Positions 6,503-32,443 of a stretch of 62,299 bases of DNA are shown here, one piece after another. The translations under genes and the position numbers were made by a program. The notes under the pieces are model-generated. The model ran no database searches and was not told the origin of the DNA. It worked only from the letters and a program-made list of their open reading frames with translations. Source of the DNA: an uncultured Clostridia bacterium (GTDB taxonomy: Bacteria; Bacillota; Clostridia; Christensenellales; Borkfalkiaceae); contig CANPXX010000001.1 in assembly GCA_947587085.1 (NCBI GenBank), positions 1 through 62,299 of the forward strand, in the 5' to 3' direction. Positions within the stretch are counted from its first letter, which is position 1. Each line of letters starts with the position of its first letter.

Positions 6503-9500
6503 TCATTCGCGGTAGGGGTCGTTCTCGTCCGCGGGAGCCTCGGGTTCGGGTTCGGGCGCGGGAGCGGGAGCGGGAGCGGGCGCTTCCGCCTTGGGCGCCT
6601 TCTCCGCCGTCTTGCGCACCCGCTTCTTCGCGGGCTTGGAAGAATTCTTGTGCGTCCTCTTCCAGATGCGCCGTACGGCGACCGCAATGATGACGAACAC
6701 GAGCACGAAGGCGAGTACGCCGGAGGAGATGAGGAGCCAGACGTTCGGAGCGTTGGGATTGGTCTGCGTCGGCTCCGTCACGTCGGGCGTGTCGTCCCCT
6801 CCCAGCTCGTCGGGCGTCACCGTCTTTTCGTTCTCGGCGAAGCTCACGAACATCGTGTACGAGGGATTGGCTTTGAGCACCGAGCCGTCGGGATCGGCGC
6901 AGAAGAGATAGGCGATGCCCTCCTCATATGCCGACTGCACATAGGAGCCCCAAGGATCGCCGAGGTTGTCCTCGTCCGTCGTCTTGTCGTAGCGGAGATA
7001 GTCGGGCGAGTCGAAGAAGGTGAAGGTGTAGTAGAGCGCGAGCTCCTCTTTCAGCCTATCTTTGAGCGTCGCGGAGGGATCGGCGGGATCGGGCGCGCGG
7101 TTCGCCTCGTCTTTGAGGAGGGCGCTCTCTGCCGCCGAGAGGAGATCGGAATAGTTGTCCACGGTGGAGGTGGAGCAGCGGTCGAAGAACACATAGCCGC
7201 CCGCGGGGAGCCCTTCGGCGTCGTCGCGCGCGCCCGCCCACAGTTCGAGGCGGTAGCTCTTCGCTTCCGCGCCCGTGTTCACGAGGAAGGAGACCGTCAC
7301 CCAGCCATCCGAGCCCACGTCCGAACCCTGCACCGTGAGGACGGTCTCGGGAAGGGCGCTCGAATAGTTGTAGCGCACGCCCGCGTCGGCGGGAAGGTCT
7401 TTCACCTCCTGCGTGAGCGCGCCCGTCGTCTCATCCTTATAGGCGTAGTAGAGGGTGCCGCTCTCCGTCTGTTTGCCGTAGAAGGCGATGGTGCCGTCCG
7501 CGGTCGTCTTGTTGCCCTCGTCGTCCGTCTTGAAGTTTTTGAGGTTGGCGTAGTACACGTTGTCGTTCGCGCCCGCCTTGGTATAGAGCCCGTTCTCTTC
7601 GAGATAGTAGAGGATGTCCGTCTTGGCGTTGTAGTCGGAGGAAGAGGGGTCTTTCGCCGTGATGTTGCCCTCGTCGTCGTACCAATAGGTGACGGAGGGA
7701 AGGGTGGGGCTGAGGCGGTTGCCGAAGCCCTCTTCGAGGTCGGAGACGTCGGTGAGGTAGAGATACGCCTTGGCGTTCGCCGACAGCTTCACGCGGACGG
7801 TGATGCGGGTGGCGGTGTTCGCCGAGAAGGTCGCGTTGGAGGCGAAGAAGCCATAGGAGGGGCTCGCCTTATCGGAGGTGTTGAGGATGACGAGGGGCTG
7901 ATAGGCGGCGTCCGCCCTCGTCCCCTTGTTGCCGAACACTTCCGTCCACCATGCGTCGTCGGTCGCGTCCTCGGAGGCGAGCGCGTTCAGAGCGCCCATC
8001 CAGCGGGTCGTCTCGTCCTCGGGCGCCGCCTTATAGGCGTCGCGGTAGTTCTTCACATATTCGGAGGAGAGGAGCCCCGTGTACACGCCGAGGGTGCGCG
8101 CGAGCTCGCTCGCGCTGGGGTTGGGTGCGCCGTCGCGGTCGAGCACGCGGCTCCCCGCGAGAACGCCCATGTAGTTCGCGGGCCGCGCGAGACCGTCCTC
8201 GATTCTCGTGCCGCTCGCCGCGGCGGCGTCGAAGCTGCTCGAATCCTTCACGTTGGCGGTGAGGGAGACCTTCTGCATGTACGAGCCGGTCGCGGCATAG
8301 CCGTACAGCTTCTTGCTCATGGACGACGTCTCGAAGTTGGCGAAGGCGGCATAGCCGTCGCAGTAGTCGCCGCGGTCCGTCCCCTCGATGGCGGTGGGAC
8401 CGTAGGTGAGTTCGAGGTGGTACGTCTTGTCGTCGTTGGTGTCGTTCTCCACGAAGAAGATGCAGCGCACCCAGCCGTCATAGATGTCGGTGAGCTCCTC
8501 GTCGTCGAGGTCGATATCCACCTTCGCCACGGTGGTGGAATTGAAGGGGGAGATCGCCGTCTTGTTCTCGCCGTCCACGAGCACCGCGCCCGCGCCAGAG
8601 GCGCCCGAGCGCAGATCGCTCGTCTTTACGAAGAAGGAGACGAGCTCTCTCGTATGCGGCGCGAGCGTGCGGTCGGGAAGGACCGCCGTGTAGGCGGCGC
8701 CGTTGGTGGAGAGGAGGGTGAGGATGCCGTCCGTGTTGGCGAAGGGGAACTTCGCGAAGTCCTCCTCCACGATGTTTTTGAGGTAGCCGTTGTCCGTCGC
8801 CCTCAGCTGTGCGAGCGAGAACACGCCGAGCACGCTCCTGCGCGTCTCGGGGACCGTCTCGTCCGTGCGGTTGTCGCCGAGGGAGCTGTCGATGTAGGCG
8901 GAGTTGAACTTGCTGTCTGCGGAATCCGCGGTCAGCTTCAATTCGGTGGGCTCGGGCGTGAACGCCGAGAGGTCGGTTTTGAGGTCGAGCGCGAAGGTGC
9001 TTTCGCCGAAGGCGCCCGTCGTGCGGTCCACCGCGTCGAACTTTCTCGCGTCGCCGCGGTCCTCGATGCCGACGGTCGTCACGCCGTTGGTCTTTTCGGC
9101 GAACGCCGCGTCGGAAATGAGCTTGCAGGTCACGTCGTCGAAGAAGGCGTAGCCGTCCACCGCGTCATAGCGGTCGTCCGAGTTGCCCTGTCCGAGCCCG
9201 AGCACGATGCGGAAGGTGGTCGCGGCGAAGGTGTTGGCGCGCACGTACACCGTGTACTGCTTCCAACCGTTGTTCTCCGTCACGTTCTTCGTGTTGATGT
9301 TGCGGATCTGGAGCTGGTCGAGGGTGGTGCCGCCCACCGTGTTGGTCACGCCGATGTACGCGCCGCCCCGCTTCTCGACCTCCACGTCGTTGCCCGACGC
9401 ATAGTGGTAGAGGTTGGAGGTCTTGACCCAGACGGAGATCTCCGCCGCGCCGCCGGAGGGAACGGTTATAGTGGTGCCCGACGTATAGTACTGCGCGGTG

Positions 9501-10117
9501 CCGCGTACGCCGTCCGAGGAGCGGCGGTTGTGGATCATGAGCACGCTCGTGTCGCCGCTCTCCGTCTGCTTGTCCGCGTCATGCAGCCCCGGACCGCCTT
9601 CCACTTCGTGGAGGTATTGCACGTCCTCGAAGTCGATGGAGTAGGTATAGTCGGAGTACAGCGAGAAGTCGCTCGCGGAGGAGACGGAGCTCTCCTTGTA
9701 GAAGGAGAGACGGTCGTAGGCGGTGACCGCCTCGTCCGTCCAGTTGGCGAGGGCGTCCTCGGGCGAGGTGAGCGGACGTCCCGACTTGGAGAGATAGTCC
9801 CACTCGGTCACGTCCACGATGCCCGAGGCGGTGTCCGAAGAGGGGGAGCCTGAGGTGAACGACCAGCTCGTGGGGGAGTTGATGAGGTCGAGCTTCTTGG
9901 TGACGTCCTCCTCGTCCATCTCGTCGTAGAACTCGAAATTGCCGTTTTTGAGAAGTTGGGTATCGGTGGCGGAGGAGGTGGAGGACTCCGTCTCCTCTTC
10001 CTCCGCGGGCGCCTCGGCGCAGGCGGCGAACACGCCGAGCGTGAGGGCGGCGGAGAGTGCGGCGGCGACTGCGAGAGCGCGCCGCTTTCCCTTTCCCGTT
10101 CTGATAAATCTTGCCAT
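6503..10117 (-). CDS. Large acidic cell-surface protein with putative lipoprotein signal and C-terminal TM anchor
   Basis: Start MARFIRTGKGKRRALAVAAALSAALTLGVFAAC is a signal peptide with a lipobox-like FAAC. At least four strand-rich segments look like jelly-roll/CBM modules (LKNGNFEF..., ...VWVKTSNL, ...FFVKTSDL, ...RVKLSANAKAYLYL, ...SFLVNTGAEAKSYRLELWAG). C-terminal TM is VWLLISSGVLAFVLVFVIIAVAV, followed by a Lys- and Ala/Pro-rich tail. Confidence 0.75.
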   Translation of the reverse strand: MARFIRTGKGKRRALAVAAALSAALTLGVFAACAEAPAEEEETESSTSSATDTQLLKNGNFEFYDEMDEEDVTKKLDLINSPTSWSFTSGSPSSDTASGIVDVTEWDYLSKSGRPLTSPEDALANWTDEAVTAYDRLSFYKESSVSSASDFSLYSDYTYSIDFEDVQYLHEVEGGPGLHDADKQTESGDTSVLMIHNRRSSDGVRGTAQYYTSGTTITVPSGGAAEISVWVKTSNLYHYASGNDVEVEKRGGAYIGVTNTVGGTTLDQLQIRNINTKNVTENNGWKQYTVYVRANTFAATTFRIVLGLGQGNSDDRYDAVDGYAFFDDVTCKLISDAAFAEKTNGVTTVGIEDRGDARKFDAVDRTTGAFGESTFALDLKTDLSAFTPEPTELKLTADSADSKFNSAYIDSSLGDNRTDETVPETRRSVLGVFSLAQLRATDNGYLKNIVEEDFAKFPFANTDGILTLLSTNGAAYTAVLPDRTLAPHTRELVSFFVKTSDLRSGASGAGAVLVDGENKTAISPFNSTTVAKVDIDLDDEELTDIYDGWVRCIFFVENDTNDDKTYHLELTYGPTAIEGTDRGDYCDGYAAFANFETSSMSKKLYGYAATGSYMQKVSLTANVKDSSSFDAAAASGTRIEDGLARPANYMGVLAGSRVLDRDGAPNPSASELARTLGVYTGLLSSEYVKNYRDAYKAAPEDETTRWMGALNALASEDATDDAWWTEVFGNKGTRADAAYQPLVILNTSDKASPSYGFFASNATFSANTATRITVRVKLSANAKAYLYLTDVSDLEEGFGNRLSPTLPSVTYWYDDEGNITAKDPSSSDYNAKTDILYYLEENGLYTKAGANDNVYYANLKNFKTDDEGNKTTADGTIAFYGKQTESGTLYYAYKDETTGALTQEVKDLPADAGVRYNYSSALPETVLTVQGSDVGSDGWVTVSFLVNTGAEAKSYRLELWAGARDDAEGLPAGGYVFFDRCSTSTVDNYSDLLSAAESALLKDEANRAPDPADPSATLKDRLKEELALYYTFTFFDSPDYLRYDKTTDEDNLGDPWGSYVQSAYEEGIAYLFCADPDGSVLKANPSYTMFVSFAENEKTVTPDELGGDDTPDVTEPTQTNPNAPNVWLLISSGVLAFVLVFVIIAVAVRRIWKRTHKNSSKPAKKRVRKTAEKAPKAEAPAPAPAPAPEPEPEAPADENDPYRE

Positions 10118-10193
10118 ATAAACACCTTTTCGCGGAGATACGCGCGGCGCTTGCCGCGCATACCGTTCCTGATTTCGTTGGGATAGCTTCTCT

Positions 10194-10222
10194 ATTTTAA
10201 TATAAATCGACAGGAGAAGCAA
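10194..10222 (-). promoter_or_regulatory. Candidate promoter for the surface-protein gene
   Basis: On the minus strand, TTGCTT (10217-10222), a 17-nt spacer, then TAAAAT (10194-10199). It overlaps the ORF-track TTG start at 10222, which supports ATG 10117 as the real start. Confidence 0.5.
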
Positions 10223-14310: not shown

Positions 14311-14386
14311 CGCGCGCGCAAACGCGCGCAAAACGGTTAAACAGAACGAATTATTGAAATACATACCCTCGATTTATCAAAATTGC

Positions 14387-14417
14387 TTGACGTGCAGGGG
14401 GGGGGTCATGGTACAAT
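14387..14417 (+). promoter_or_regulatory. Candidate promoter of the 17-kb operon (extended -10, G9 tract in the spacer)
   Basis: TTGACG (14387-14392), a 19-nt spacer containing G9, then TGgTACAAT (-10 at 14412-14417). Confidence 0.5.
14397..14405 (+). repeat. G9 homopolymer tract
   Basis: gcaGGGGGGGGGtcatgg read directly from the sequence. It lies between the putative -35 and -10. Confidence 0.95.
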
Positions 14418-14424
14418 GCTGTAT

Positions 14425-15129
14425 ATGAGTCTCTGGATCATCTGGTTCGTCATGGGCATATGCTTTGTGGCGGTATTCGCGGTCATGGTATTCCCCAAGC
14501 TCATGCTCCGCACCTATGCGGCGACGCTCCCCGTCCGCGACCGCACCGTCGGCAGGGAGACGGACGGGCACGGCGAAGTCCTCGTCTGCGAGCCCTCCGC
14601 CCTGTCGCGGCGGTACATCCGTTCGTACCGCGTGGGGCGGGACAAGGAGGGCATGTATTTCCGCGGCGAGCGGGCGAAGCGCGCCGCCTTTCTCGCGTAC
14701 GATCTCATCGTGTTCGGCGCCTCCAATACCATCTTGCAGATTCTGCACGTCAAAGAGAAGTTCAATTCCGACCCCTTCACCGAGACGGTGCGCCTTCCCA
14801 AGCGCACCGACCTTGTGATTCTGCGGGTGGTGTGCGCGGACGACACGCCCTTCCCGCCCGAGCGCCGTCCCTTCAACGCGCGCTATGCGCTTTGGCTCAC
14901 CCTGCTCTCGCTCAGTCTCGCCTTTACGGTGGACCTCTTTCTTTGGCTGTGCGTCACCTTCGCATGCCGCATCCTTGACCGTTTCACCATGACGGTCTCG
15001 CTGCCCCTCTCTTCGTGGGCGGCGCTTCTCGGGGTGACCGCCCTCGCCGTCGTCGCGGTCTGCTGGGCGGTCTCGCTCGCGCGCTTTTTCCTGTTGCGCG
15101 GAAGGGGGAAGGATGAAAACGGTCGCTAA
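14425..15129 (+). CDS. Hypothetical membrane protein (first gene of the operon)
   Basis: N-terminal TM SLWIIWFVMGICFVAVFAVMVF, a soluble middle region, and C-terminal TM helices. The start is chosen downstream of the putative -10; the ORF track starts at TTG 14383. Confidence 0.55.
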   Translation: MSLWIIWFVMGICFVAVFAVMVFPKLMLRTYAATLPVRDRTVGRETDGHGEVLVCEPSALSRRYIRSYRVGRDKEGMYFRGERAKRAAFLAYDLIVFGASNTILQILHVKEKFNSDPFTETVRLPKRTDLVILRVVCADDTPFPPERRPFNARYALWLTLLSLSLAFTVDLFLWLCVTFACRILDRFTMTVSLPLSSWAALLGVTALAVVAVCWAVSLARFFLLRGRGKDENGR

Positions 15130-15688
15130 ACGGTTACCCTATCCGGGCGGGTTCCCCGTCTATCTCTCGCGGTACGTCCTCTTTCCCGAGGGGTGTCGGG
15201 TCGCCCTGCGCTTTTTCAACGCGAGCGAGACGGAGTTCACGGGCGTGCGCTTTCTGCTCGTGGAGAAGGGGGCGGACGGAAGCGAGATCGCCTCGCGCAC
15301 GGTGGAGCGGCGGGGGCTGTCCGCCGAGCGCGGGCGGGAGTTCTCCCTGCCCGACGAGCCCGTGAGCGAGGGCTGCGCCGAAGTGGAGGCGCGGCTCATC
15401 GCCGCCCTCTCCGACGGCTACGAATATTGCGTGGAGGGGAGCGAAGTCATTCTCCGCTACGGGGAGGAGGCGCCCCCCGCCGAGCGGGAGATTTCCTTCA
15501 CCGAGCCCCCCTCCCATTCCGTCTCCAAGCGGTACAAATGGGTGGTCCTGTTCTCGCTGTGCGCGGTGCTCGGGCTCGCCCTCGTGGCGGCGGGATCTGC
15601 ATGGTTTTTCGGTATTTTCGATTCTCTCCTGCCGCAGCCCGACGGCGCGGCGGAGACGGGAACGGTCACGGAATATGTTGAAGCATAG
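15113..15688 (+). CDS. Hypothetical protein with C-terminal TM anchor
   Basis: 191 aa with a C-terminal TM (WVVLFSLCAVLGLALVAAGSAWFF). It overlaps the upstream gene by 17 nt and the downstream gene by 14 nt. Confidence 0.55.
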   Translation: MKTVAKRLPYPGGFPVYLSRYVLFPEGCRVALRFFNASETEFTGVRFLLVEKGADGSEIASRTVERRGLSAERGREFSLPDEPVSEGCAEVEARLIAALSDGYEYCVEGSEVILRYGEEAPPAEREISFTEPPSHSVSKRYKWVVLFSLCAVLGLALVAAGSAWFFGIFDSLLPQPDGAAETGTVTEYVEA

Positions 15689-18600
15689 CGATATCATCGA
15701 AAAACTCGATTCGCTGCAAAAGGTGGCGCTCGTCGCCTCGGCGTTGGAGGACGAAGCCCTCGAACAGGCGGGGGTGCCCCCCGTCGGGCGGGCGGAGCTT
15801 GGCGCGCTCGCCGCAAAGGAGGGGTGCTCCTACCGCAGTGCGGCGTGCTCGTGGAACGCCGCGCTCATCGAGGAAATGACGCGGGAGCTTGCCGCGGAAG
15901 CGGGCGCGGACGGGGCGCGTCTCTTCGTCACGCCCGATCTGAAAGCGGCGGCGGGACCGTACGCGGAGGGGCTCACCGAGGACGCGGAGCTCAACGGCAT
16001 GTACGGCGCCGCGATGGCGCGCGGCGTGCACGCCGCGGGCGGTGCGGTGGGGCTCGGTCGCCTCTCGCTCGGCGCCGCCGAACTTGCCTGTCTCGACCGC
16101 CGCGAGGATCTCCGCGCCGTCCACGAGCTGGCGGTAAAGCCCTTCCTGCTCGCCGCAAAGGAGGGGTGCGACGCGGTGTTCCTGACGCCGAGCCGCGCGG
16201 GGGAGGGATATCCCGACACCAACCGCGCCCTCTTTTCGGACGTCTTGGCGGGGCGGTTCGGAAACGCCTTCGCCGTCGGAGAGGGGACGGCGCCCACGTC
16301 CGAGGCGGTCTTTCTGTTGCAGGGGAGGGCGACCTTGGGCGGCGCGGCGCTCCCGCTCGAGCGGGCGGCGCGGCGGTACGAACAGCTCGCCGCCTTCCGC
16401 GGGGAGGGAAGCGTCTCGGAGCGGGACGTGGAGGACGCGCTCCGCGAGGGGAGCGCGCTCTCCCGCGAACGGTTGGACGAGGCGGCGGACGAAGTCGCCG
16501 ACTTCGCCATCCGCCTGTCAGAGCTCACGTTGGAGCCGCCCGCGGGCGACGCGGCGAGGCGGGCGGTCGCGGAGGAGAGCATCGTGCTCCTCAAAAACAA
16601 CTCCGTCCTTCCCCTCGCGCAGGGGACGAAGATCGCCGTCGTGGGGGAGGCGTATCCCGACCTTTCCCCCCTTGCCTCGCGGTTCGAGGTAGCGGGGACG
16701 GCGCGCGGCTATGACCGCGCGACCGATCGGAGCGACGCCCTCATCCCCGAGGCGATGCGCGCGGCGAACGGCGCGGACGTCGTGCTCGCCTTTCTCCGTC
16801 CCGACCCGAACGGGCGCTCGCTCGCCCTTCCCGCCAACCGTCTCGCCCTGCTCGGGGCGCTCGAAAAGGCGGGGAAGAGGGTGGTGACGGTCCTTCTCGG
16901 CGACCTCGCGGCGGACATGCGCTTCGACCGCGATGCGGCGGCGTCGCTGTATGCGCCCGAGGGCGGGAAATATGCCGCCGAAGCGCTCGCGCGCGTGCTC
17001 GCGGGAGAGGTCTCCCCCTCGGGCAAGCTGGCGCGCACTCTGTACGACGGCGCGGACGAGCGGGTCCGCGCGCTGAGAGAGGAGCGCGATTCGGGGCTCA
17101 CCCGCGTGGGCGGGTTCACGGGCTATCTCCGCTACGATACGGCGGGGGAGACGGTGCGCTATCCCTTCGGGTACGGGCTCTCCTATACGAAATTCGTCTA
17201 TTCCTCCCTCTCGGTGGAGGGGGATACGGTGTCCTTTACGGTGAGAAACGCGGGCAAGCACGACGGCGCAGAGGTCGCCGAGGTGTATATCGGCGAGCCC
17301 GGCAAGTCGCACGTGGCGCCCTCCAAGCGGTTCAAAGCCGCCGCGAAGGTGTTCCTGCGCGCGGGGGAGAGCAAGAGGGTCTCCCTCACCCTCCCGCCCG
17401 AGCGGTATGCCACTTTCGACCGCCGCACCTTCGCGGAGAACGTGGAGGGGGGAACGTACCGCATCTTTGTGGGCGCCTCCTCGCAGGACATCCGTCTGCG
17501 CGGCAAGCGGACGCTCGCGGGCGTCGAACGGGAACGGGAGAAGGAGACGGCGGCGGACTACTTCCCGGGCGGAGACCGCGGCGACGTCGCCGAAGTGGGG
17601 CGGGAGAGCCGCCTTGCGAAGGAGGACGGGCGCGAACGGGTGCCGCGGCGCCTGCGCATCGCGCGGCGGACGGCGCTTTGCCTCCTCCCCGCCGTCTTGC
17701 TCCTCTTCTTTCTGATCGTCACCATGCTCATCTTTTCCTATGCGCTCGACTATGTCCTCCTCTTCACGGTGGACGAACAGGCGGCGGCGTGGGCGCTCTA
17801 TATCCTCGCGTCGGCGGTCGTCGCCTTCGTGCCGCTCTTCGGCTCGCTCAGCCGCAGGCGGATGGTGCGGATCAAAAAGGTCTGCATGACGGCGTGCCCC
17901 ATCCTCCTCCTTGCCGATCTCTTCCTCGGGCACTTCCTCGGAACGGACGGGACGGGGGCGGTCGAAGCCGTGTTTACGGCGGTCACCTGTCTCGCCGTGG
18001 GGACGGTGCTCGCCCTCCTTCTCGGCTTCGTGCTCGAACGCGAGCTCGTGCGCACGGAGAGCGGGGCGAACCGCTGGGCGCGCTTCTATTTCGAACCCGA
18101 AAAGCAGGAGACGACGACGCCCGATACGCAGTTCGAGGAGGCGTTCCGCGCGGCGGACGAGGCGCGCGCCAAAACAAAGGGCAAGCAGGAGGAGCCTCGC
18201 GCGCCCATCGCCGAGGTCCCCCAATTTTACGATCGGCATCTCACCTTCGAGGTGCTCTTCCGCGACTGCAAGCGGTTCGCGGCGGAGCGCGGCGTGCTCT
18301 TCGAGGACGGGGACCTTCGCGACCTCCTCGCCGCGTTCACGGCTTCCCGCCTCATCATCGTGCCTTCGGGCGGCGCCGTGAAGGGGTGCTCCGCCGTCGC
18401 GGAATATCTCGGCGGCAAGCCCTATGTGGACAATGCCGAACAATACATGCGGTGCGACGACCTCTTCTCGGAGTGGCGGAGCGGGGAGCGGCTCTATCTT
18501 CCCACCGCCCTGAGCGAGGCGTTCGCCGAGGCGGGGAGAAAGAGCGCCGTCCTCCATACGGCGATCATCCGCCATGCCGACGTCAACCGCCTCGCCGAGG

Positions 18601-19172
18601 TGTTCGGTCCCGTCGCGGAGGTGCTTTCCCGCAGGCGGACCGCGATTCCCTCGCAGGAGGGCGATCGGCTCCTGCCGCCCAACCTGCAATTGGTGGTGGA
18701 GCTGGACTCCGACGGGACGGACATCCCCGAGAAGATCGCGGAGGTCGCGGCGGTGCTGTCGCCGCAGTGCAAGGAGGGCGCGCCCGCGCAGAGAAAGACG
18801 GTGGTGCACGCGGTCGGCTTCGAGCGCTTCTCGGCGCTCCGCAACGCCGTGCGCGACGAATTCCCCGTCGGCGAGGCGCTGTGGAAGGACGTGGACCGTC
18901 TCGACGCGCAGTGCCGCGCGGCGCACATCGGCAACCTCGCGTGGGTGAGGCTGGAACTGCACGCCTCCGCCGTCATCGCCTGCGGCGGAAAGGAGCGGGA
19001 GGCGCTGGACGGCGCCCTCGCCGCGGAGCTCGTCCCGTGGCTGAACGCGACGTGGGACGACGAGGCGGGCGGGCTTTTTGAGACGTTGCGGGAGATCTTC
19101 GGGAGAGATTTCGCCCGCGCGGCGCAGGCGGCGAAGAGGGCGGCTACGAAAGAGAAGGGGGCGCGCGGATGA
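15675..19172 (+). CDS. Fusion protein: GH3-like domains + Fn3-like domain + four TM helices + degenerate McrB-like AAA+ domain
   Basis: GH3 hallmarks are IVLLKNNSVLPL..KIAVVGE, SPSGKLARTLY and RYPFGYGLSYTKF. There is no N-terminal signal peptide. Four hydrophobic helices fall at roughly aa 660-790. The C-terminal 330 aa are collinear with the two downstream GTPases but lack the Walker motifs. Confidence 0.8.
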   Translation: MLKHSDIIEKLDSLQKVALVASALEDEALEQAGVPPVGRAELGALAAKEGCSYRSAACSWNAALIEEMTRELAAEAGADGARLFVTPDLKAAAGPYAEGLTEDAELNGMYGAAMARGVHAAGGAVGLGRLSLGAAELACLDRREDLRAVHELAVKPFLLAAKEGCDAVFLTPSRAGEGYPDTNRALFSDVLAGRFGNAFAVGEGTAPTSEAVFLLQGRATLGGAALPLERAARRYEQLAAFRGEGSVSERDVEDALREGSALSRERLDEAADEVADFAIRLSELTLEPPAGDAARRAVAEESIVLLKNNSVLPLAQGTKIAVVGEAYPDLSPLASRFEVAGTARGYDRATDRSDALIPEAMRAANGADVVLAFLRPDPNGRSLALPANRLALLGALEKAGKRVVTVLLGDLAADMRFDRDAAASLYAPEGGKYAAEALARVLAGEVSPSGKLARTLYDGADERVRALREERDSGLTRVGGFTGYLRYDTAGETVRYPFGYGLSYTKFVYSSLSVEGDTVSFTVRNAGKHDGAEVAEVYIGEPGKSHVAPSKRFKAAAKVFLRAGESKRVSLTLPPERYATFDRRTFAENVEGGTYRIFVGASSQDIRLRGKRTLAGVEREREKETAADYFPGGDRGDVAEVGRESRLAKEDGRERVPRRLRIARRTALCLLPAVLLLFFLIVTMLIFSYALDYVLLFTVDEQAAAWALYILASAVVAFVPLFGSLSRRRMVRIKKVCMTACPILLLADLFLGHFLGTDGTGAVEAVFTAVTCLAVGTVLALLLGFVLERELVRTESGANRWARFYFEPEKQETTTPDTQFEEAFRAADEARAKTKGKQEEPRAPIAEVPQFYDRHLTFEVLFRDCKRFAAERGVLFEDGDLRDLLAAFTASRLIIVPSGGAVKGCSAVAEYLGGKPYVDNAEQYMRCDDLFSEWRSGERLYLPTALSEAFAEAGRKSAVLHTAIIRHADVNRLAEVFGPVAEVLSRRRTAIPSQEGDRLLPPNLQLVVELDSDGTDIPEKIAEVAAVLSPQCKEGAPAQRKTVVHAVGFERFSALRNAVRDEFPVGEALWKDVDRLDAQCRAAHIGNLAWVRLELHASAVIACGGKEREALDGALAAELVPWLNATWDDEAGGLFETLREIFGRDFARAAQAAKRAATKEKGARG

Positions 19173-20443
19173 ATCTTCTCATCGATATGCAGACCATCTG
19201 GGATACGCTCACCTCTCCCGTCTTTGTCATCGTCTACATCGTGGCGGTGGCGCTCCTCATGCTCGCCATCGTCATCTCGGTCATGGTCAACGAGCACCGC
19301 TTCACCGCCTTCGGCGACCGCCTCGGCAAGAGCGCGGAGATGGCGGAGCGCGGGGAGGAGCGCAGCGGTTCGCGCTTCGATATGCTGAAAAAATTGGACG
19401 GGGAGAAGAAAACGCGGCAGGAGACCGCGTTCGAGGACATCTCCTTGAAGGAGCTGTGCGAGAGCTTCCGCAGCTTTTCGGCGGGGAAGCTCGGGCTGTA
19501 CTATTCCATCGACGTCATCCGCGAGTTCATCGCGGGGCTCGCCGTTTCGCACATCATCATCCTGCAGGGCATGTCGGGCACGGGCAAGACGTCGCTCGCC
19601 TACGCCTTCGGGGAATTCCTCGGCAATCCCTCCACCGTCATTCCCGTCCAGCCCATGTGGAAGGAGCGGAGCGACCTCCTCGGCTATTACAACGAATTCA
19701 CCAAGCGGTTCAACGAGACCCTTCTTCTGCAAAAGATCTACGAGGCGAACGGGCGCGGGGACATCTTCATCACCATCCTCGACGAGATGAATATCGCCCG
19801 CGTGGAGTACTACTTCGCGGAGTTTTTGTCCCTGCTCGAAATTCCAAACCCCGAGGCGCGCTACCTCGAAGTGGTGTCCGACCGATGGGCGGACGACCCC
19901 GAGGAGCTCAAAAACGGGCGGGTGAAACTGCCCGAGAACATGTGGTTCTTGGGGACGGCGAACAACGACGACAGCACCTTCGCCATCTCGGACAAGGTGT
20001 ACGACCGCGCCATGATTCTGAACATGGACCAGCGGTGCGAGCCCTTCGAGGCGAAGGCGTACCGCTCCGTGCCCGTCGCCGCCGCCCGCTTCGAGCGCCT
20101 TGCGGCGGAGGCGGTCAAAGAGATCGGGGTGTCCTTGGAGACGCTTGACAAGCTCAAAAAGGTGGACGCCTATCTCGCGGAGACCTATCAGATCTCCTTC
20201 GGGAACCGCATCCTGCGGCAGATCGTCACCTATCTGCCCGTCTACGTCGCCTGCGGCGGGGATGAGATCGACGCTCTCGACGACATCCTCGCGAAGAAGG
20301 TGCTCAGAAAACTCGAAACGCAGAACATGACCTACCGTGCCTCCGACATGGAGGCGCTGTGCGAGGTCCTCAACGAACTGTTCGGCGCGGAGCGCATGGC
20401 GCGCTGTCTCAAAACGGTGCGGCGCATCGCGCGGAACGGATAG
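19169..20443 (+). CDS. Membrane-anchored McrB-family AAA+ GTPase (paralogue 1)
   Basis: N-terminal TM VFVIVYIVAVALLMLAIVISVMV, Walker A GMSGTGKTS, Walker B ILDEMNIARVEYYFAEFLSLLE, and McrB-type LGTANNDDSTFAISDKVYDRA (NxxD). The ATG overlaps the upstream stop (ATGA). Confidence 0.8.
   Translation: MNLLIDMQTIWDTLTSPVFVIVYIVAVALLMLAIVISVMVNEHRFTAFGDRLGKSAEMAERGEERSGSRFDMLKKLDGEKKTRQETAFEDISLKELCESFRSFSAGKLGLYYSIDVIREFIAGLAVSHIIILQGMSGTGKTSLAYAFGEFLGNPSTVIPVQPMWKERSDLLGYYNEFTKRFNETLLLQKIYEANGRGDIFITILDEMNIARVEYYFAEFLSLLEIPNPEARYLEVVSDRWADDPEELKNGRVKLPENMWFLGTANNDDSTFAISDKVYDRAMILNMDQRCEPFEAKAYRSVPVAAARFERLAAEAVKEIGVSLETLDKLKKVDAYLAETYQISFGNRILRQIVTYLPVYVACGGDEIDALDDILAKKVLRKLETQNMTYRASDMEALCEVLNELFGAERMARCLKTVRRIARNG
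19550..20016 (+). repeat. About 467-bp near-identical tract shared with 22823-23289
   Basis: By eye, roughly nine-tenths nucleotide identity across the AAA+ core of the two GTPase genes. The flanking gene parts are much more diverged. Confidence 0.8.
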
Positions 20444-20454
20444 GGGAAGGGCGC

Positions 20455-22287
20455 ATGAATCAGACCGATCACATCTATCGCGCCTTCACGGAGCTCAAAA
20501 GGGCGCTGGAAGAGAACCGCTCCGTCCTCTCCTTCTCCCGCGCGCTCGCAGAGGCGGCGGAGCAGGACCGCATCACCGTCACGCACAACCTCTGCTATGT
20601 CGAGGAGGATTGGGTGGCGGCGATCGAGCGCGGACTGCCCTTCATCGCCAAGGCGATCGAGGAGGACAGACAGTTCATCCGTTCGGACGGCGAGGTACAG
20701 CCCATCGAGAAGGTGCGGCACATCTCGCGGGAGTCCGTCCAGCACCTCTCCCGCCACAGCGACTACATCACGCGGGAGCCAAAGGAGGACGACATCATCC
20801 CCGACAAGCTCTACACGGTGGAGCGTCTCAACGACTATGCCGTGTACGAGAACCGCTTCCTCTATCTTCTGCTTTGCAAGATCCGCGACTTCGTCTCCCT
20901 GCGCTACGACGCCATCCTCCGCGCCTTCAAGCTGTACCGCGGCGAGCTCTCCGTCCGCAAGAAGGTCGCCCTGCCGACGCGGCGCATGGAGCTCTCGGTG
21001 TCCATGACGGACGAGCAGGACGACGCGCTCGCCGCCTCCGCCGACCCCGTCTGCCTCAGCTATCTCGGGCGCATGGAGAAGATCCAGAGCAGCGTCGCCT
21101 TCTTCCTGCGCACCCCGCTCATGGTGGAGGTGTCCCGCGTAGACAAGATCAAGTCCAAGATCACCAAGACCAACGTCCTGCGCATGGACAAAAATTTCAA
21201 GGAGGCGGTCTCGCTGTACGAGTTCCTCCTCGCCTATGAGGGGGACGGCTACACGGTGGAGCGGAACGTCACCGCGCTCGATCCCGTCTCGGCGGAGATC
21301 GCGTCGGAGCTGGCGGCTCCCTCCGTTCTCTTGTCCTTCCTCGTGTACGAGCACGGGCTGGGGATGGAGGAGCTTCTCCGCGAGGCGTACGAGCGGGAGG
21401 AGGCGCTTCGCGCCGAGCGCGCCCAAAGCGCCCTCGTGGAGGCGATCAAGGAGCTCAAAAAGCGCGTTGCAGAGACGGGGGAGGACATGGAGCGCTATAT
21501 GCTCCTCCTCGAAGAGCGCAACGCGTGGCTCGAAAAGGAACACCTCCTCTACCTCGAAGCGCAGAAGAAGATCGAAGCGCTCGAGGGCACGGTCGGGGAA
21601 TTGCGCGCCGAGAGAGAACGCCTCATGGGGGAGATCGGCGAGCTCACTGCCGAGAACGAGGCGCTCGGGGCGAAGATAGAGGAAATGGCGGAGACGCACA
21701 GACAGCAGCTCGCGGCGCTCAAAGAGGAGCACGCGCGGGAGACGGCGGCGCTCAAAGAGGAGCAGGAAAAGGAGTTGGAGCGCGCCGAACGCAAGCACCG
21801 CGAGGAGATTGCACGCGTCCGCGCGGAGGGCGAGAAGAAGTTGAAGGAGGAGCGGGAGCGCACCGCCGAGCGGATGCGCGAGACGGAGGAGGCGCGCCGC
21901 GAGACGGACGCCGTGCAAAAGGTGCTCGAAAGCGCCGAGGAGGAGTGCGCCATGCTCCGCGCGCGGTACACGGCGCTTCGGAGCGAACACGGGCTCCGCG
22001 GCGACGCGGATTTCACCACCGAGGAGGGATTCAACGAGCTCGAACGCGAGTTCGAGGCGCTCGGCAGATTGGTCCGCAGGGAATGGACGGACGTCAAGCG
22101 CATGTTGCGCAAGGAATTTTACGGGTCGCTCCGCACCGTCATGCGCGGGAAGAAGGGAGAGAAGAGCGCGGCGTACGAGGCGCTCGTTTCCTCCGCGCAG
22201 GCGCGCCGCGCGCAGGGCGAAGAGCCGCCCATAGGGGAAGGCACAAAGGACAGCGAAGAGGCGTCGGATGAAGACGGAAGAGCATAA
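20455..22287 (+). CDS. McrC/DUF2357-like N-terminal domain fused to a long coiled coil (no nuclease motif seen)
   Basis: The N-terminal part (IRSDGEVQPIEKVRHISRESVQHLSRHSDYI ... YAVYENRFLYLLLCKIRDF ... TNVLRMDKNFKEAVSLYEFLL) resembles the McrB-binding part of McrC/DUF2357. From about aa 300 it is E/K/R/A/L-rich heptad-like sequence for about 270 aa. Confidence 0.6.
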   Translation: MNQTDHIYRAFTELKRALEENRSVLSFSRALAEAAEQDRITVTHNLCYVEEDWVAAIERGLPFIAKAIEEDRQFIRSDGEVQPIEKVRHISRESVQHLSRHSDYITREPKEDDIIPDKLYTVERLNDYAVYENRFLYLLLCKIRDFVSLRYDAILRAFKLYRGELSVRKKVALPTRRMELSVSMTDEQDDALAASADPVCLSYLGRMEKIQSSVAFFLRTPLMVEVSRVDKIKSKITKTNVLRMDKNFKEAVSLYEFLLAYEGDGYTVERNVTALDPVSAEIASELAAPSVLLSFLVYEHGLGMEELLREAYEREEALRAERAQSALVEAIKELKKRVAETGEDMERYMLLLEERNAWLEKEHLLYLEAQKKIEALEGTVGELRAERERLMGEIGELTAENEALGAKIEEMAETHRQQLAALKEEHARETAALKEEQEKELERAERKHREEIARVRAEGEKKLKEERERTAERMRETEEARRETDAVQKVLESAEEECAMLRARYTALRSEHGLRGDADFTTEEGFNELEREFEALGRLVRREWTDVKRMLRKEFYGSLRTVMRGKKGEKSAAYEALVSSAQARRAQGEEPPIGEGTKDSEEASDEDGRA

Positions 22288-23716
22288 ACGGAAAAAGATC
22301 AGGCGGAGGGGGAGACGGCGTTTCGTCCTCTCCGTCATGCTGCTCACCGCGGTCGCGCTCGTCGCGGGGTCCTTGGTCGCGGTCCTTTTCTATCTCATGT
22401 CCAACGGCACGTTGGAGACCATGCTCGCCCTCCTTCGCGACGTGTTCCTCGCGCAGGAGATCAACAGCGCGCTCATCATCTTCTGGGCGCTCGTCATCCC
22501 GTTTCTTCTCGCCGCCCTTCTCATCCTCAACACCGTGCGGCGGCGCAAGTTCAAGTACTACCGCCGTACGTGGGAGGACACCGTCCAGCTCGCGGTGGAG
22601 GCGGAACAGCGCGCGAGCGAGAAGGAGCGCGAAAAGGCGGGGCGCGGGCATCGGTTCAGCGCGCTCTACGATATCCCCGTCCGCACGCCGCCCGAGAGGG
22701 AGAGCGGGATCTCCTCGCTCGCCGAGCTTTGCAGGCGCTTCCGCCTGTACGCCGCCGCCGAACTTCATCTCTACTATACCGAAGCGCAGGTGCGGGAATT
22801 CGTGGCGAGCCTCGCCGTCTCGCGCATCATCATCTTGCAGGGCATGTCGGGCACGGGCAAGACGTCGCTCGCCTATGCCTTCGGGGAATTCCTCGGCAAT
22901 CCCTCCACCATCATCCCCGTCCAGCCCATGTGGAAGGAGCGGAGCGATCTTCTCGGCTACTACAACGAGTTCACCAAGAAGTACAACGAGACGGCGCTCC
23001 TGCGCAAGATGTACGAGGCGAACGGGCAGGACAAGATCTATCTCGCCGTCCTCGACGAGATGAACATCGCCCGCGTGGAGTACTACTTCGCGGAGTTTTT
23101 GTCCCTGCTCGAAATACCCGATCCCGAGCTCCGTTACCTCGAAGTGGTTTCGGATTCGTGGGAGGAGGACCCCGACGGGCTCAAAGACGGGCGCATCAAA
23201 TTGCCCGAAAACATGTGGTTCTTGGGGACGGCGAACAACGACGACAGCACCTTCGCCATCTCGGACAAGGTATACGACCGCGCCATGATCGTCGATCTCG
23301 ACAGCCGCGCCGCGCCCTTCGGAGGGGAGGGGGAACAACAGAAGGTGCCCGTCACCTTCCCCGAGTTCACCCGCCTTGCGGAGAGCGCCCGCCGCGGCTA
23401 CGAGCTCACGCGGCGCAACGAGCGTCGGCTCAAAGCGCTCGACGACTACCTCATCGAAACCTTTCAGATAACCTTCGGAAACCGCATCCTGCGGCAGATC
23501 CGCGCGTATATTTCGGTGTATGTGAGCTGCGGGGGCGAGGAGCTCGAAGCGCTCGACGACATCCTCGCGAAAAAGGTGCTCCGAAAGCTCGCCAATAAAG
23601 ATCTGTCTCTTCTTCGCGGCGAGCTCGAAGAGGCGTCCAAATTTTTCGAAACTCTGTTCGGCGACGGCAAGATGCCGCGGTGCCGCGAAACGCTCCTGCG
23701 CGCGGCGAAGCTCTGA
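22268..23716 (+). CDS. Membrane-anchored McrB-family AAA+ GTPase (paralogue 2)
   Basis: Basic N-terminus (KRKKIRRRGRRR) plus two TM helices, then the same GMSGTGKTS, LDEMNIARVEYYFAEFLSLLE and LGTANNDDSTFAISDKVYDRA motifs. It overlaps the upstream gene by 20 nt. Confidence 0.8.
   Translation: MKTEEHKRKKIRRRGRRRFVLSVMLLTAVALVAGSLVAVLFYLMSNGTLETMLALLRDVFLAQEINSALIIFWALVIPFLLAALLILNTVRRRKFKYYRRTWEDTVQLAVEAEQRASEKEREKAGRGHRFSALYDIPVRTPPERESGISSLAELCRRFRLYAAAELHLYYTEAQVREFVASLAVSRIIILQGMSGTGKTSLAYAFGEFLGNPSTIIPVQPMWKERSDLLGYYNEFTKKYNETALLRKMYEANGQDKIYLAVLDEMNIARVEYYFAEFLSLLEIPDPELRYLEVVSDSWEEDPDGLKDGRIKLPENMWFLGTANNDDSTFAISDKVYDRAMIVDLDSRAAPFGGEGEQQKVPVTFPEFTRLAESARRGYELTRRNERRLKALDDYLIETFQITFGNRILRQIRAYISVYVSCGGEELEALDDILAKKVLRKLANKDLSLLRGELEEASKFFETLFGDGKMPRCRETLLRAAKL
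22823..23289 (+). repeat. Partner copy of the 19550-20016 tract
   Basis: See 19550-20016. Confidence 0.8.
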
Positions 23717-23725
23717 GGAGGGACT

Positions 23726-26125
23726 ATGAGACGTTCGAAACCGCTCTATCTCTTCGGAATGATCATCGTGATGAGCCTCATCTTTCTCGGTGGGGTCTGT
23801 TTTGCCGCGGGCTACGGGAGATTCGGGCTCTTGCGGGGGGAGGAAGTCGAGGATCCCAACACGCTGTGGGAGGACATCGTCGAGAACTTCGATTGGAACG
23901 ACTTCCCGTGGGACGACTTCCCCTTCGAGGAGTACGACGACTTCCCTTGGAGCGAGCTCCCTTGGGACGACATGCCCGCCGACTTCGATTGGAACAAGCT
24001 CCCGTGGGAGACGTTGCCCGACGACTTCCCTTGGGACAATCTTCCCTTCGACGATCCGCCCGCTGACTTCCCGTGGGACGATCTCCCGTGGGATTCCCTC
24101 CCCGAGGACTTCCCCATCGACGACGTGCCGTGGGGCGACATCCCCATCGAGGATATGCCTTGGGAGAACCTGCCCGAAGATTTCCCGTGGGGGGATATTC
24201 CCCTCGGCGACGCGGAGGAGTTCCCGTGGGAGAACATTCCGTGGACCGACCTTCCCGAGGACTTCCCGTGGGAGGACGTCCCTTGGGAGAGCGCACCCGA
24301 CGATTTCCCTTGGAACGACGTGCCTTGGGAGGATGTCCCGATGGAGACGCTTCCCGAGGACTTCCCGTGGGAAAATCTTCCTTGGAATGACTTGCCCGAC
24401 GACTTCCCTTGGAACGATGTGCCGTGGGAGGACGTCCCTATGGAGACGTTGCCCGAGGACTTCCCTTGGGAAAACCTGCCGTGGAACGACTTACCAGAAG
24501 AATTCCCTTGGGAAGATGTCCCGTGGGAGGATGTCCCGATGGAGACGCTCCCCGAGGATTTCCCTTGGGAAAATCTTCCTTGGAACGATTTACCCGACGA
24601 TTTCCCTTGGAACGACGTCCCTTGGGAGGACGTGCCGATGGACACCCTCCCCGAGGACTTCCCTTGGGAAAACCTGCCTTGGAACGATTTACCCGAAGAA
24701 TTCCCGTGGGAAGATGTCCCTTGGGAGGACGTCCCGCTCGATACGCTTCCCGAGGACTTCCCGTGGGAGAATCTTCCTTGGAACGACTTGCCCGAAGAAT
24801 TCCCGTGGGAAGATGTCCCTTGGGAGGACGTCCCGCTCGACACCCTCCCCGAGGATTTCCCGTGGGAAAACCTGCCGTGGAATGACTTGCCCGAAGAATT
24901 CCCTTGGAACGACGTGCCTTGGTCGGATGTCCCGATGGAGACGCTCCCCGAGGATTTCCCGTGGGAGAATCTTCCTTGGAATGAGCTTCCCGACGACTTC
25001 CCTTGGAACGATGTGCCTTGGTCGGACGTCCCGCTCGACACCCTCCCCGAGGATTTCCCGTGGGAAAACCTGCCTTGGAACGATTTACCCGACGACTTCC
25101 CTTGGAACGATGTGCCTTGGTCGGATGTTCCGCTCGATACGCTGCCCGAGGACTTCCCTTGGGAAAAGTTGCCGTGGAACGATCTCCCCGAGGACTTCCC
25201 GTGGGATCAGGTCCCGTGGGCAGACCTGCCGTGGGAGGAGATGCCGCTCGACTTCCCGTGGGATAAAGTTCCTTGGAACGACCTCCCCGACGACTTCCCT
25301 TGGCAGAAACTGCCGTGGCCGCTCTTGGCGGCGGGCGGCTTGTTGCTCGGGCTGGGGCTGCCGTGGGATAAGATCCCGCAGGACGCCATCCCCGAAGGCA
25401 TATTCCCCGAGGGCTTCTCGCCGTGGTGCCAACATGTCTTTACCGAATGGCGGGAGGAGCCCCCGCCCACCTGCGGCGCACCGGGCGTCAGACAAGAGCA
25501 CTGCGTGCTCTGCGGCGAGGTGGTCGGAAGGGAGGACATCCCCGCGACGGGCGCGCACGTCTATGGAGAGGACGGCGTCTGCACGGGGTGCGGACGGAGG
25601 AAGGTGTGCTTTGTGAGCGCCTCCAAAGAGACGGAATACGGCGGCGCGCTTCGGTGCGAAAACGAGGACATCTCGCTCGTGCGGGAGACGGGCTTCGCCG
25701 CGCTCGCGGAGGGGCACTCCTTCGAGGGGATAGATTTTGCCTCGCACAACACCATCGGCGAATGCCCCAACGTCTTTCACGTCCGCATCAAAGACGCGGC
25801 GGGGAACGACGTGACGGATACATACGAAGTGGAGTACCGCTACGGGACTCTCACGCTCACCGCGCGGAGGCTCGTCCTCGTCACGGAGAGCCATGCGTTC
25901 TCCCTCTCCGAATTCACGGGCGAGCCCCTCAAATGGGAGAAGTATTCTTTCGGAGACGGCACGTCGCTCGCCGAGGGCGACCGCATCGTGCTCACCTTCG
26001 AGAGCATCTCGCGCCCGGGCAGAAAGGAAAACATAGCTACTTACCGCATCGAGAATGCGGACGGGGAGGACGTGACGGGGAATTATGCCGTGACCTCCCA
26101 ATGGGGAGAGCTGACGCTCAAATAG
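23726..26125 (+). CDS. DFPW acidic Trp/Pro repeat protein with N-terminal TM anchor, Cys-rich segment and MBG-like C-terminal domains
   Basis: 799 aa with strong RBS GAGGAGGG. The TM is LYLFGMIIVMSLIFLGGVCFAAG. About 480 aa of (F/L/V)PW(E/N/D)D-type units follow. Then comes CGAPGVRQEHCVLCG...CTGCG, and it ends with ...VTGNYAVTSQWGELTLK. Confidence 0.85.
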   Translation: MRRSKPLYLFGMIIVMSLIFLGGVCFAAGYGRFGLLRGEEVEDPNTLWEDIVENFDWNDFPWDDFPFEEYDDFPWSELPWDDMPADFDWNKLPWETLPDDFPWDNLPFDDPPADFPWDDLPWDSLPEDFPIDDVPWGDIPIEDMPWENLPEDFPWGDIPLGDAEEFPWENIPWTDLPEDFPWEDVPWESAPDDFPWNDVPWEDVPMETLPEDFPWENLPWNDLPDDFPWNDVPWEDVPMETLPEDFPWENLPWNDLPEEFPWEDVPWEDVPMETLPEDFPWENLPWNDLPDDFPWNDVPWEDVPMDTLPEDFPWENLPWNDLPEEFPWEDVPWEDVPLDTLPEDFPWENLPWNDLPEEFPWEDVPWEDVPLDTLPEDFPWENLPWNDLPEEFPWNDVPWSDVPMETLPEDFPWENLPWNELPDDFPWNDVPWSDVPLDTLPEDFPWENLPWNDLPDDFPWNDVPWSDVPLDTLPEDFPWEKLPWNDLPEDFPWDQVPWADLPWEEMPLDFPWDKVPWNDLPDDFPWQKLPWPLLAAGGLLLGLGLPWDKIPQDAIPEGIFPEGFSPWCQHVFTEWREEPPPTCGAPGVRQEHCVLCGEVVGREDIPATGAHVYGEDGVCTGCGRRKVCFVSASKETEYGGALRCENEDISLVRETGFAALAEGHSFEGIDFASHNTIGECPNVFHVRIKDAAGNDVTDTYEVEYRYGTLTLTARRLVLVTESHAFSLSEFTGEPLKWEKYSFGDGTSLAEGDRIVLTFESISRPGRKENIATYRIENADGEDVTGNYAVTSQWGELTLK
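24341..25231 (+). repeat. In-frame 99-bp (33-aa) tandem repeat, about 9 units
   Basis: The unit is (M/L)(E/D)TLPEDFPWENLPWNDLP(D/E)(D/E)FPW(N/E)DVPW(E/S)DVP. Consecutive units are highly similar at the DNA level. Confidence 0.9.
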
Positions 26126-26137
26126 GACGGAGGGAAC

Positions 26138-31468: not shown

Positions 31469-31490
31469 AGGGAATTTTGAAAGTTACCAT

Positions 31491-31519
31491 GCGGCGGGCG
31501 AATTGGTCTCGCCCGCCGC
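31491..31519. terminator. Hairpin between convergent genes (probable operon terminator)
   Basis: Perfect 11-bp GC stem gcggcgggcga/tcgcccgccgc with a 7-nt loop. The U-tract is weak on both strands. Confidence 0.5.
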
Positions 31520-31530
31520 TTATCGGTCGG

Positions 31531-32292: not shown

Positions 32293-32391
32293 GTCGATTA
32301 CCTCTCTTTGCCCTATCGTACGCCCGTGTGCTACAAAGGATTCGGGCACACTTTGAAAGTTCGGTACGATTTTTGTCGAGCGCCGTCCCGC

Positions 32392-32420: not shown

Positions 32421-32443
32421 TTTCCAAAGCATGGAGAAATGAG

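Follow-up and report, generated by a model that had tools for sequence, protein, structure and literature searches.

What does a bacterial membrane protein gain from a conserved AAA+ domain that has lost the residues for catalysis? The question is raised by a 62,299-nucleotide stretch of DNA from an uncultured Clostridia bacterium (contig CANPXX010000001.1; hereafter the window), which encodes an 1165-residue membrane protein followed by two proteins related to McrB, the motor subunit of the McrBC restriction system. An earlier reading of the DNA, made from its letters and open reading frames (ORFs) without database searches (the sequence-only reading), had proposed that the cytoplasmic C-terminal part of the membrane protein is a third, degenerate McrB paralogue and that the three might form a heteromeric ring with a regulatory pseudo-GTPase subunit. 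We examined the last 375 residues of the protein (approximately residues 791–1165; positions 18045–19169), which follow its last transmembrane (TM) helix, together with the genes around them. We confirm that this segment and the two downstream AAA+ proteins are three paralogues, find that the segment lacks four catalytic elements, and propose that it may act as an adaptor between a membrane protein and an McrBC-like assembly.

A third McrB-like paralogue without catalytic residues

We compared the C-terminal segment with the two downstream proteins by pairwise and profile alignment. BLASTP aligned the segment to the first of them (424 residues; McrB-like NTPase 1, or McrB1) with 27% identity over 333 columns (E = 4e-13) and to the second (482 residues; McrB-like NTPase 2, or McrB2) with E = 1e-11, and the alignments reproduced the three motif pairings listed in the sequence-only reading. 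In HHalign, a profile of 55 orthologous C-terminal domains matched a profile of 127 copies of the active paralogues with a probability of 99.9% (E = 4.3e-33, 319 columns). The proposed collinearity of the three proteins is therefore significant by both kinds of comparison. The domain is equidistant from the two active lineages (E = 1.5e-31 and 2.3e-32), and its origin could not be traced to one of them in particular.

Searches of Pfam and of PDB sequences with this domain alone returned no match, so its homology could be recognized only through pairwise, profile and fold comparisons. A word-indexed protein search with the domain alone was also empty, which reflects a limit of the index, because, when searched exhaustively with HMMER, the domain matched 285 cluster representatives at E ≤ 1e-3 (121 at E ≤ 1e-10). 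Among the HMMER matches listed, most are 1050–1280 residues long and have the domain match at the C terminus.

An AlphaFold 2 (AF2) model of the segment, built with 26 full-length orthologues, has a mean predicted local distance difference test score (pLDDT) of 86.4 and a predicted template modelling score (pTM) of 0.79. Segment residues 1–67 form a low-confidence linker. They are followed by alternating strands and helices at residues 84–244 and a helical lid at residues 259–373, so that the model has the Rossmann-like α/β core and following lid of an AAA+ protein. A Foldseek search of the PDB with the model gave 173 matches at E ≤ 0.001, the best 50 of which are all AAA+ proteins; those listed include MCM, NorQ, McrB chains (6hz4 and 6ut6), BchI, RavA/MoxR and dynein. 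The structural comparison that had been suggested as a check thus does recover McrB, as one AAA+ protein among several: the best MCM, NorQ and McrB matches lie between E = 3e-6 and 5.5e-6, with TM-scores of at most about 0.44.

Four catalytic elements are missing from this fold (Table 1). The active family retains the motifs GMSGTGKTS (Walker A), LDEMN (Walker B), NNDD (signature) and YDRAM (trans-acting arginine), each in at least 90% of the 127 copies. The sequence-only reading had pointed to the loss of Walker A, which reads PSGGAVKG in the window, and of the Walker B acidic pair, which is replaced by R176–H177; neither motif is preserved in any of the 55 aligned domains from orthologues. 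Two losses go beyond that list. The signature asparagine, at the sensor-1 position, has become D221 (LDSDG where the active paralogues have ANNDDST), and the trans-acting arginine has become V234 (AEVAA for YDRAM); both residues are also missing from the consensus of the fused family. In McrB, the signature asparagine takes the place of sensor 1 and the arginines 15–16 residues downstream act in trans (PMC7680126). With these residues gone along with the Walker motifs, the domain has been stripped of both the cis and the trans parts of the catalytic machinery. Approximately 12–15 residues are also missing between Walker B and the sensor-1 strand, a segment that would correspond to a pore-facing hairpin. 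Judged from its sequence, the domain is an AAA+ fold but no enzyme.

To follow the degeneracy across genomes, we used a sample of 76 related loci from species-representative genomes, in 54 of which the fused ORF was recovered. None of the 54 fused ORFs, and none of four more divergent ones, contains a GxxxxGK[ST] P-loop in this domain. An ancestor-like fused copy with an active domain was sought among the recovered orthologues and none was found. The residues common to the dead and active families lie outside the catalytic motifs (LPxN, GN, CG, ALD and a C-terminal FG), and the G-N, C-G and A-L-D residues of the lid are conserved in both. Eleven columns are invariant across 27 full-length orthologues, and the lid residues N297, W300, E304, A312 and G314 do not vary within the fused family. 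In pairwise comparison, orthologues of the dead domain share 29% identity on average, and those of the two active paralogues 68% and 65%, which indicates that the constraint on the dead domain is relaxed but real. These comparisons support a degeneracy that is ancient and conserved, with no sign of recent decay.

Table 1 Features of the fusion gene and its neighbours, by position in the window
Feature	Positions	Strand	Basis or detail
Two small membrane proteins, 248 and 191 amino acids (aa), at the start of the cluster	14383–15688	+	Syntenic upstream of the fusion gene in many loci; TM helices
Whole fusion gene, 1165 aa: pseudo-GH3 region, Fn3-like domain, four TM helices, linker, pseudo-McrB AAA+ domain	15675–19172	+	One uninterrupted ORF
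GH3-like region without catalytic residues, predicted cytoplasmic	15675–17600	+	Glyco_hydro_3_C at aa 303–504; Fn3-like at aa 533–603
Four predicted TM helices, aa 668–686, 704–722, 733–751 and 769–787	17676–18035	+	Kyte–Doolittle scan
Pseudo-McrB AAA+ domain (α/β core and helical lid), segment residues 68–373	~18246–19163	+	BLASTP, HHalign, AF2, Foldseek
Degenerate Walker A, P107-SGGAVKG114 for GMSGTGKT	18363–18386	+	Alignments to active paralogues
Degenerate Walker B, IIRHAD, with R176-H177 for D-E	18564–18581	+	Alignments to active paralogues
Lost signature/sensor 1 (DSDG for NNDD; Asn to D221) and lost trans-acting Arg (to V234)	18705–18746	+	Alignments
Lid motif common with active paralogues, IGN..W...E.......ACGG....ALD.A.A.ELVPWL	18927–19043	+	Conserved columns
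McrB-like NTPase 1, 424 aa, one TM helix and active AAA+ module	19169–20443	+	Pfam AAA_5 above cut-off; PADLOC; HHalign
McrC-like protein without nuclease: DUF2357 N-terminal domain and long coiled coil	20455–22287	+	Pfam profile
McrB-like NTPase 2, 482 aa, two TM helices and active AAA+ module	22268–23716	+	Pfam, BLASTP, PADLOC, TM scan
Two large membrane-anchored repeat proteins, 799 and 1776 aa, after the cluster	23726–31468	+	tblastn relatives

The active paralogues and the McrC-like protein between them

The two active paralogues share 57% identity, and both score above the Pfam cut-off for AAA_5. They have weak PDB-sequence matches to McrB and midasin, and their match to the NCBIfam McrB model lies far under its cut-off. 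We therefore compared profiles with one representative each of the McrB and MoxR families, E. coli McrB and E. coli RavA. The active profile matched McrB residues 176–348 with an HHalign probability of 96.3% (E = 1.9e-9, 158 columns), against 3.6% for RavA, where the match covers the P-loop only. The profile of the dead domain behaved in the same way (McrB residues 259–448: 84%, E = 7.6e-6, 177 columns; RavA: 0.1%). The ANNDDST stretch of the active paralogues aligned without gaps to MNTADRS of E. coli McrB, and the NxxD signature is at least 90% conserved in the active paralogues and absent from the dead domain. With a DUF2357 gene lying between the two active genes, these results bear out the choice of name in the sequence-only reading, and the label McrB-like is supported by the profile evidence.

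The term GTPase, which the sequence-only reading used for the two downstream proteins, is by comparison unproven. Among AAA+ clades, McrB alone is known to prefer GTP. An aromatic residue that follows the Walker A threonine of McrB stacks on the guanine (PMC7680126), and in the active family this residue is a serine (GMSGTGKTS). A preprint (bioRxiv 10.64898/2026.08.31.748284) reports non-canonical McrB homologues without nucleotide specificity. NTPase is therefore the safer word. McrB also has a pair of trans-acting arginines, one sensor II-like and one an arginine finger, at positions N+15 and N+16 relative to the signature asparagine (PMC7680126); the active paralogues have an arginine at N+15 only (YDRAM). 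Pfam detected no N-terminal DNA-binding domain on the active paralogues, whose N termini consist of one or two TM helices and a short charged linker. In the TM scan, all three AAA+ modules are predicted to be membrane-anchored and cytoplasmic.

The gene between the active paralogues decides the McrBC context of the locus, since it encodes a DUF2357 domain. Bell et al. (2024; PMC11090510) equate DUF2357 with the N-terminal domain of McrC. The N-terminal 335 residues of the protein matched the DUF2357 profile (PF09823), as did 43 of 43 orthologues (best E = 8.8e-11), and some of the 705 database homologues of the protein had already been annotated or named DUF2357. In the window copy, the best match covers residues 76–150 (positions 20680–20904). 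Scans with Pfam, NCBIfam and PADLOC detected no nuclease family on this protein, including PD-(D/E)xK, and its C-terminal half, with approximately 250 residues of coiled coil, has coiled-coil-type matches only (for example, SMC and JetC). As no nuclease was detected, the locus is not filed as a restriction enzyme; from its predicted products we describe it as McrBC-like, nuclease-less and membrane-tethered, with NTPases as its motor proteins. In an AF2 model of the DUF2357 region (pLDDT 78.5), the most conserved stretch, residues 73–125, is disordered, which would fit a segment that folds only inside an McrB-type ring.

The fusion protein and its gene neighbourhood

The dead domain is encoded in one uninterrupted ORF with a GH3-like region and four TM helices ahead of it, so that the fusion described in the sequence-only reading stands. 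This architecture is conserved: the full-length orthologues (P0001–P0027) are 1049–1311 residues long, and the 54 loci contain fused single ORFs of approximately 1050–1360 residues, two of which end at a contig edge. The Pfam domains scoring above cut-off on the 1165-residue protein are PF01915 and PF14310, and a sub-threshold MFS_1 match runs across the hydrophobic stretch. The catalytic N-terminal domain of GH3 enzymes (PF00933) was not detected by Pfam in the window protein or in P0001–P0027, whereas it was detected in true GH3 matches. Across approximately 640–650 residues, the GH3-like part is collinear with a genuine GH3 protein (P0030; E = 2e-67). Relative to this protein, the K-H pair has become GR, the nucleophile motif ITDW has become VGEG, and the segment with the acid/base glutamate is deleted. 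The 1165-residue protein therefore has two dead enzyme modules, the GH3 part and the McrB-like tail both having been stripped of catalytic residues.

Basic residues flank the membrane segments, ahead of TM1 (RERVPRRLRIARR) and throughout the TM2–TM3 loop (SRRRMVRIKK). By the positive-inside rule, these flanks would place the GH3-like N-terminal part and the C-terminal part both in the cytoplasm, giving a predicted N-in/C-in topology. No signal peptide was noted at the N terminus of the fusion protein, although no formal signal-peptide test was made. The GH3 region thus looks like a cytoplasmic pseudo-glycosidase.

We used tblastn to establish the gene order of the related loci. In most of them the order is the 248-residue protein, the 191-residue protein, the fusion protein, McrB1, the DUF2357 coiled-coil protein, McrB2 and an acidic-repeat protein, and this order recurs across many species-level metagenome-assembled genomes (MAGs) at 53–77% identity. 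The fusion gene lies directly upstream of McrB1 in 57 of the 64 informative loci, that is, those with enough upstream sequence. In the window, the stop codon of the fusion gene and the start codon of McrB1 overlap as ATGA (19169–19172), and the DUF2357 gene overlaps McrB2 by 20 bases (22268–22287). From the 248-residue gene to an ORF of 329 residues (14383–32442), all genes are on the + strand and their junctions overlap or nearly abut. The overlapping junctions suggest translational coupling, and the whole region may form one long, translationally coupled operon.

All 76 loci come from MAGs of uncultured gut Clostridia, sampled from rabbit, chicken, ruminants, horse and other hosts, with labels that include 'Candidatus Gallimonas', Christensenellaceae and Pumilibacteraceae. 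One locus (L042, contig CAZHGN010000024.1) has a Clostridia-type cluster yet is labelled 'uncultured Acidiphilium sp.', which is probably a binning or labelling error of the source MAG. A group of lower-GC loci (L028, L029, L031, L032, L035, L037 and L043) has the core and the repeat protein without the fusion and 191-residue genes. In four of these (L028, L029, L035 and L037), a polytopic membrane protein of 270–330 residues is encoded directly upstream of McrB1, and its N terminus weakly resembles the 248-residue protein of the window.

The remaining proteins of the cluster are less readily classified. The 248- and 191-residue proteins have no Pfam match. Relatives of the 799-residue protein (23726–26125) lie downstream of McrB2 in most loci. 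This protein has an N-terminal TM helix or signal anchor and no Pfam match, and its gene contains 10.6 copies of a 99-bp (33-residue) acidic, Trp/Pro-rich repeat (DFPWE...LPWNDLP...; positions 24254–25303). The 1776-residue protein (26138–31468), the N-terminal part of which was matched in 58 related loci, consists of many copies of a module of approximately 90 residues, as estimated by eye, and the same module ends the 799-residue protein; its sole Pfam match is a weak one to a cell-surface antigen I/II domain.

The genes that flank the cluster in the window are of the housekeeping type (serS, rsmF, ppx, an MreB/Mbl-family gene, comEC, holA and a DAC-domain diadenylate cyclase gene). A conserved chromosomal position was considered and rejected, as in the other loci none of these flanks adjoins the cluster. 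Among the neighbours, no signal-peptidase or pilus family was detected. Two long + strand ORFs further upstream, at 118–2898 (926 residues) and 6650–9853 (1067 residues), have no Pfam match; for the second, the coding strand is uncertain, as a longer − strand ORF (6503–10222) overlaps it and the AT skew is negative there.

Possible roles of the dead domain

We favour the explanation that this dead but conserved McrB-like paralogue serves as an adaptor through which a membrane protein joins an assembly of McrB1, McrB2 and the McrC-like protein (McrC′), forming a membrane module with no function in restriction; we give this a probability of roughly 0.55. The dead domain would keep the shape of an AAA+ protomer, together with the lid motifs of the family, and would hydrolyse nothing. 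At the inner face of the membrane, it would use AAA+-type protomer contacts to hold the active assembly and the pseudo-GH3 membrane protein together, either as a fixed non-catalytic 'seam' within a mixed ring or docked onto a ring of the active subunits. The whole assembly would then be an McrBC-derived mechanochemical module that works at the membrane and cuts no DNA. The failure to find a nuclease, the housekeeping flanks of the cluster in the window and the recurrence of the gene order across MAGs all point towards a role in cell physiology.

Several observations weigh against this proposal. In 7 of the 64 informative loci, McrB1, McrC′ and McrB2 are kept without the fusion gene, so the core does not need the dead domain. 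Together with the loss of the trans-acting arginine and the fast evolution of the domain (29% identity against 65–68%), this speaks against an obligatory ring subunit. Because the arginine is lost too, a dead domain placed in a ring would inactivate two interfaces; with the segment between Walker B and sensor 1 also missing, such a position would put two sites out of action and create a gap in the pore. The connection to McrC is likewise open to question. The window copy of the McrC-like protein matches DUF2357 with E = 4.2e-4 and 20.1 bits, under the gathering cut-off of 23.3. HHalign against E. coli McrC was negative, as was a profile search of PDB sequences with the McrC-like protein, and Foldseek with the model of the DUF2357 region returned nothing below E = 0.1 and no McrC-like structure. 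Structural confirmation of the link thus failed, and the Pfam profile is the single comparison from which the putative relationship to McrC is drawn. Finally, flanking genes that are not syntenic between genomes, together with a strong match of the active paralogues to a candidate defence family, leave room for a role in defence.

The heteromeric ring of the sequence-only reading would make the dead domain a genuine protomer of a mixed hexamer with McrB1 and McrB2, in which it forms a fixed regulatory seam. The collinearity of both the large and the lid AAA+ subdomains, the family-specific lid motifs common to the dead and active paralogues, the ATGA gene overlap and the predicted anchoring of all three modules on the same side of the membrane speak for such a ring. 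McrC-bound McrB hexamers are, moreover, intrinsically asymmetric, with two loose non-catalytic interfaces (PMC7680126), so that one dead protomer could be tolerated. Set against this are the loss of cis and trans catalytic residues and of part of the Walker B–sensor-1 segment, the low constraint on the domain and its absence from loci with an intact core, and we hold the mixed ring as a tentative alternative, well short of even odds. A more elaborate version appears doubtful: that many uncultured gut Clostridia have a vertically inherited, non-defensive descendant of McrBC, shorn of its nuclease and with its motor fixed to the membrane, in which a doubly dead subunit (pseudo-glycosidase and pseudo-McrB) acts as the fixed seam or gate of a three-paralogue ring and couples a cytoplasmic cue to work on the large surface-repeat proteins encoded downstream. 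It is also unlikely, in our view, that the dead domains form an inactive oligomer of their own that stacks on, or scaffolds, the active ring, as BchD does with BchI. BchI and MoxR-type AAA+ proteins are among the structural matches, and BchD likewise has its dead AAA+ module fused to another large domain, but AAA+ clades cannot be told apart by the Foldseek matches, self-association has no support, and a four-TM anchor and a 650-residue N-terminal domain on each protomer would leave little room in a stacked ring.

McrBC systems belong to defence, and the locus could accordingly serve against phages or in other conflicts, as a membrane-anchored relative of McrBC without a nuclease, for instance a candidate of the CoCoPALM or PDC type. 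The dead domain would then work as a sensor, decoy or brake, with membrane proteins as the effectors. McrB1 and McrB2 match the PADLOC candidate PDC-M26A with E = 2e-48 and 3e-51, and the flanking genes vary between genomes. Nuclease-less McrC homologues and TM-fused McrB GTPases are also among the McrBC relatives described in PMC11090510. However, the match to PDC-M26A is confined to the NTPase domain, covering part of a 724-position profile (best stretch, 312–430); the other genes of the locus match no PADLOC model, and a keyword search found no literature on PDC-M26. Defence systems are usually patchier in distribution than this cluster, the multi-gene order of which recurs across many species with graded divergence, in the window amid housekeeping genes. 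Because the scans detected no nuclease or known effector domain, and because the conserved gene order is more like vertical inheritance, a defence role is possible but not favoured, and we judge it improbable. A further view, that the domain is a functionless relic left by the accidental fusion of a decaying duplicated gene fragment, would account for the disappearance of every catalytic motif and for the fast divergence. It is already contradicted by the conservation data and scarcely credible: the reading frame is intact in every recovered fused orthologue, bar the two ORFs at contig ends, the domain has invariant residues and a confidently predicted fold, and most of those listed among the 285 matching cluster representatives share the architecture.

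Relation to known systems and significance

Compared with the canonical McrBC systems of E. coli and Thermococcus gammatolerans, the locus has the same Walker A and B motifs, the same N-x-x-D signature in place of sensor 1 and the same basic residue 15 positions downstream. It also has the same type of partner, with an McrC N-terminal (DUF2357) domain, and a profile match to E. coli McrB. It differs in having TM helices at the N terminus, no DNA-binding domain and no PD-(D/E)xK nuclease; in combining two active paralogues with one dead one; in keeping one of the two trans arginines and no aromatic residue after the Walker A threonine; and in lacking detectable similarity to E. coli McrC.

Among described systems, CoCoPALM comes closest. 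As outlined in Bell et al. (eLife 2024; PMC11090510), the CoCoNuT and CoCoPALM systems resemble the present locus in combining McrB-like GTPases with DUF2357 coiled-coil proteins that often lack a nuclease. In CoCoPALM, which that article names without analysing it, the GTPase carries a fused TM-containing (FtsB-like) segment and is associated with genes for the envelope or pili. Measured against this brief description, the present locus shares the TM anchor and differs in that no signal-peptidase or pilus gene was detected. The CoCoNuT and CoCoPALM clades are defined there by a shortened NxD signature, whereas NNDD here aligns without gaps to NTAD of E. coli McrB, which favours an NxxD reading over NxD followed by D. 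In the window copies, it is the McrC-like protein that has the coiled coil; no coiled coil was noted in the NTPases, which were not scanned for one. In a term search of the article, neither a dead McrB paralogue nor a GH3 fusion came up, and a keyword search of the literature for such proteins returned nothing relevant among the papers listed.

Degenerate or accessory subunits are familiar from other systems. E. coli produces McrB-S, an N-terminally truncated McrB isoform that modulates McrBC. Like the dead domain, McrB-S is an additional McrB-type polypeptide that lacks a DNA-binding domain, and its part is to tune the complex instead of driving it; it differs in coming from the same gene and in keeping a fully active GTPase domain, whereas the dead domain is a separate paralogue fused to a membrane protein. 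Magnesium chelatase, with BchD and BchI, and the clamp loader, with its δ and δ′ subunits, pair degenerate AAA+ subunits with active paralogues and thus offer the precedent of a motif-less AAA+ protein retained as a structural or regulatory partner. These proteins belong to other AAA+ clades with other biology, and none of them is of the McrB type, anchored in a membrane or joined to a dead glycosidase.

McrB has been studied almost entirely as a restriction motor. The locus described here appears to be an undescribed membrane-tethered, nuclease-less relative of McrBC in uncultured gut Clostridia, and this widespread, conserved derivative is unusual in three respects: no nuclease was found, each McrB-like module is predicted to be membrane-anchored, and a dead paralogue has long been kept in fusion with a dead glycosidase. 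It thereby offers a concrete, testable example of the barely described, CoCoPALM-like membrane-linked relatives of McrBC. If the dead domain assembles with the active ones, the locus would be a natural experiment on how many live sites an McrB ring needs and on how its asymmetry is fixed. Were the locus a vertically inherited, non-defensive descendant of McrBC, it would represent a restriction motor exapted for envelope biology. Assembly of the dead domain with its active paralogues would also point to a job other than defence for McrBC-type motors in abundant uncultured gut Clostridia.

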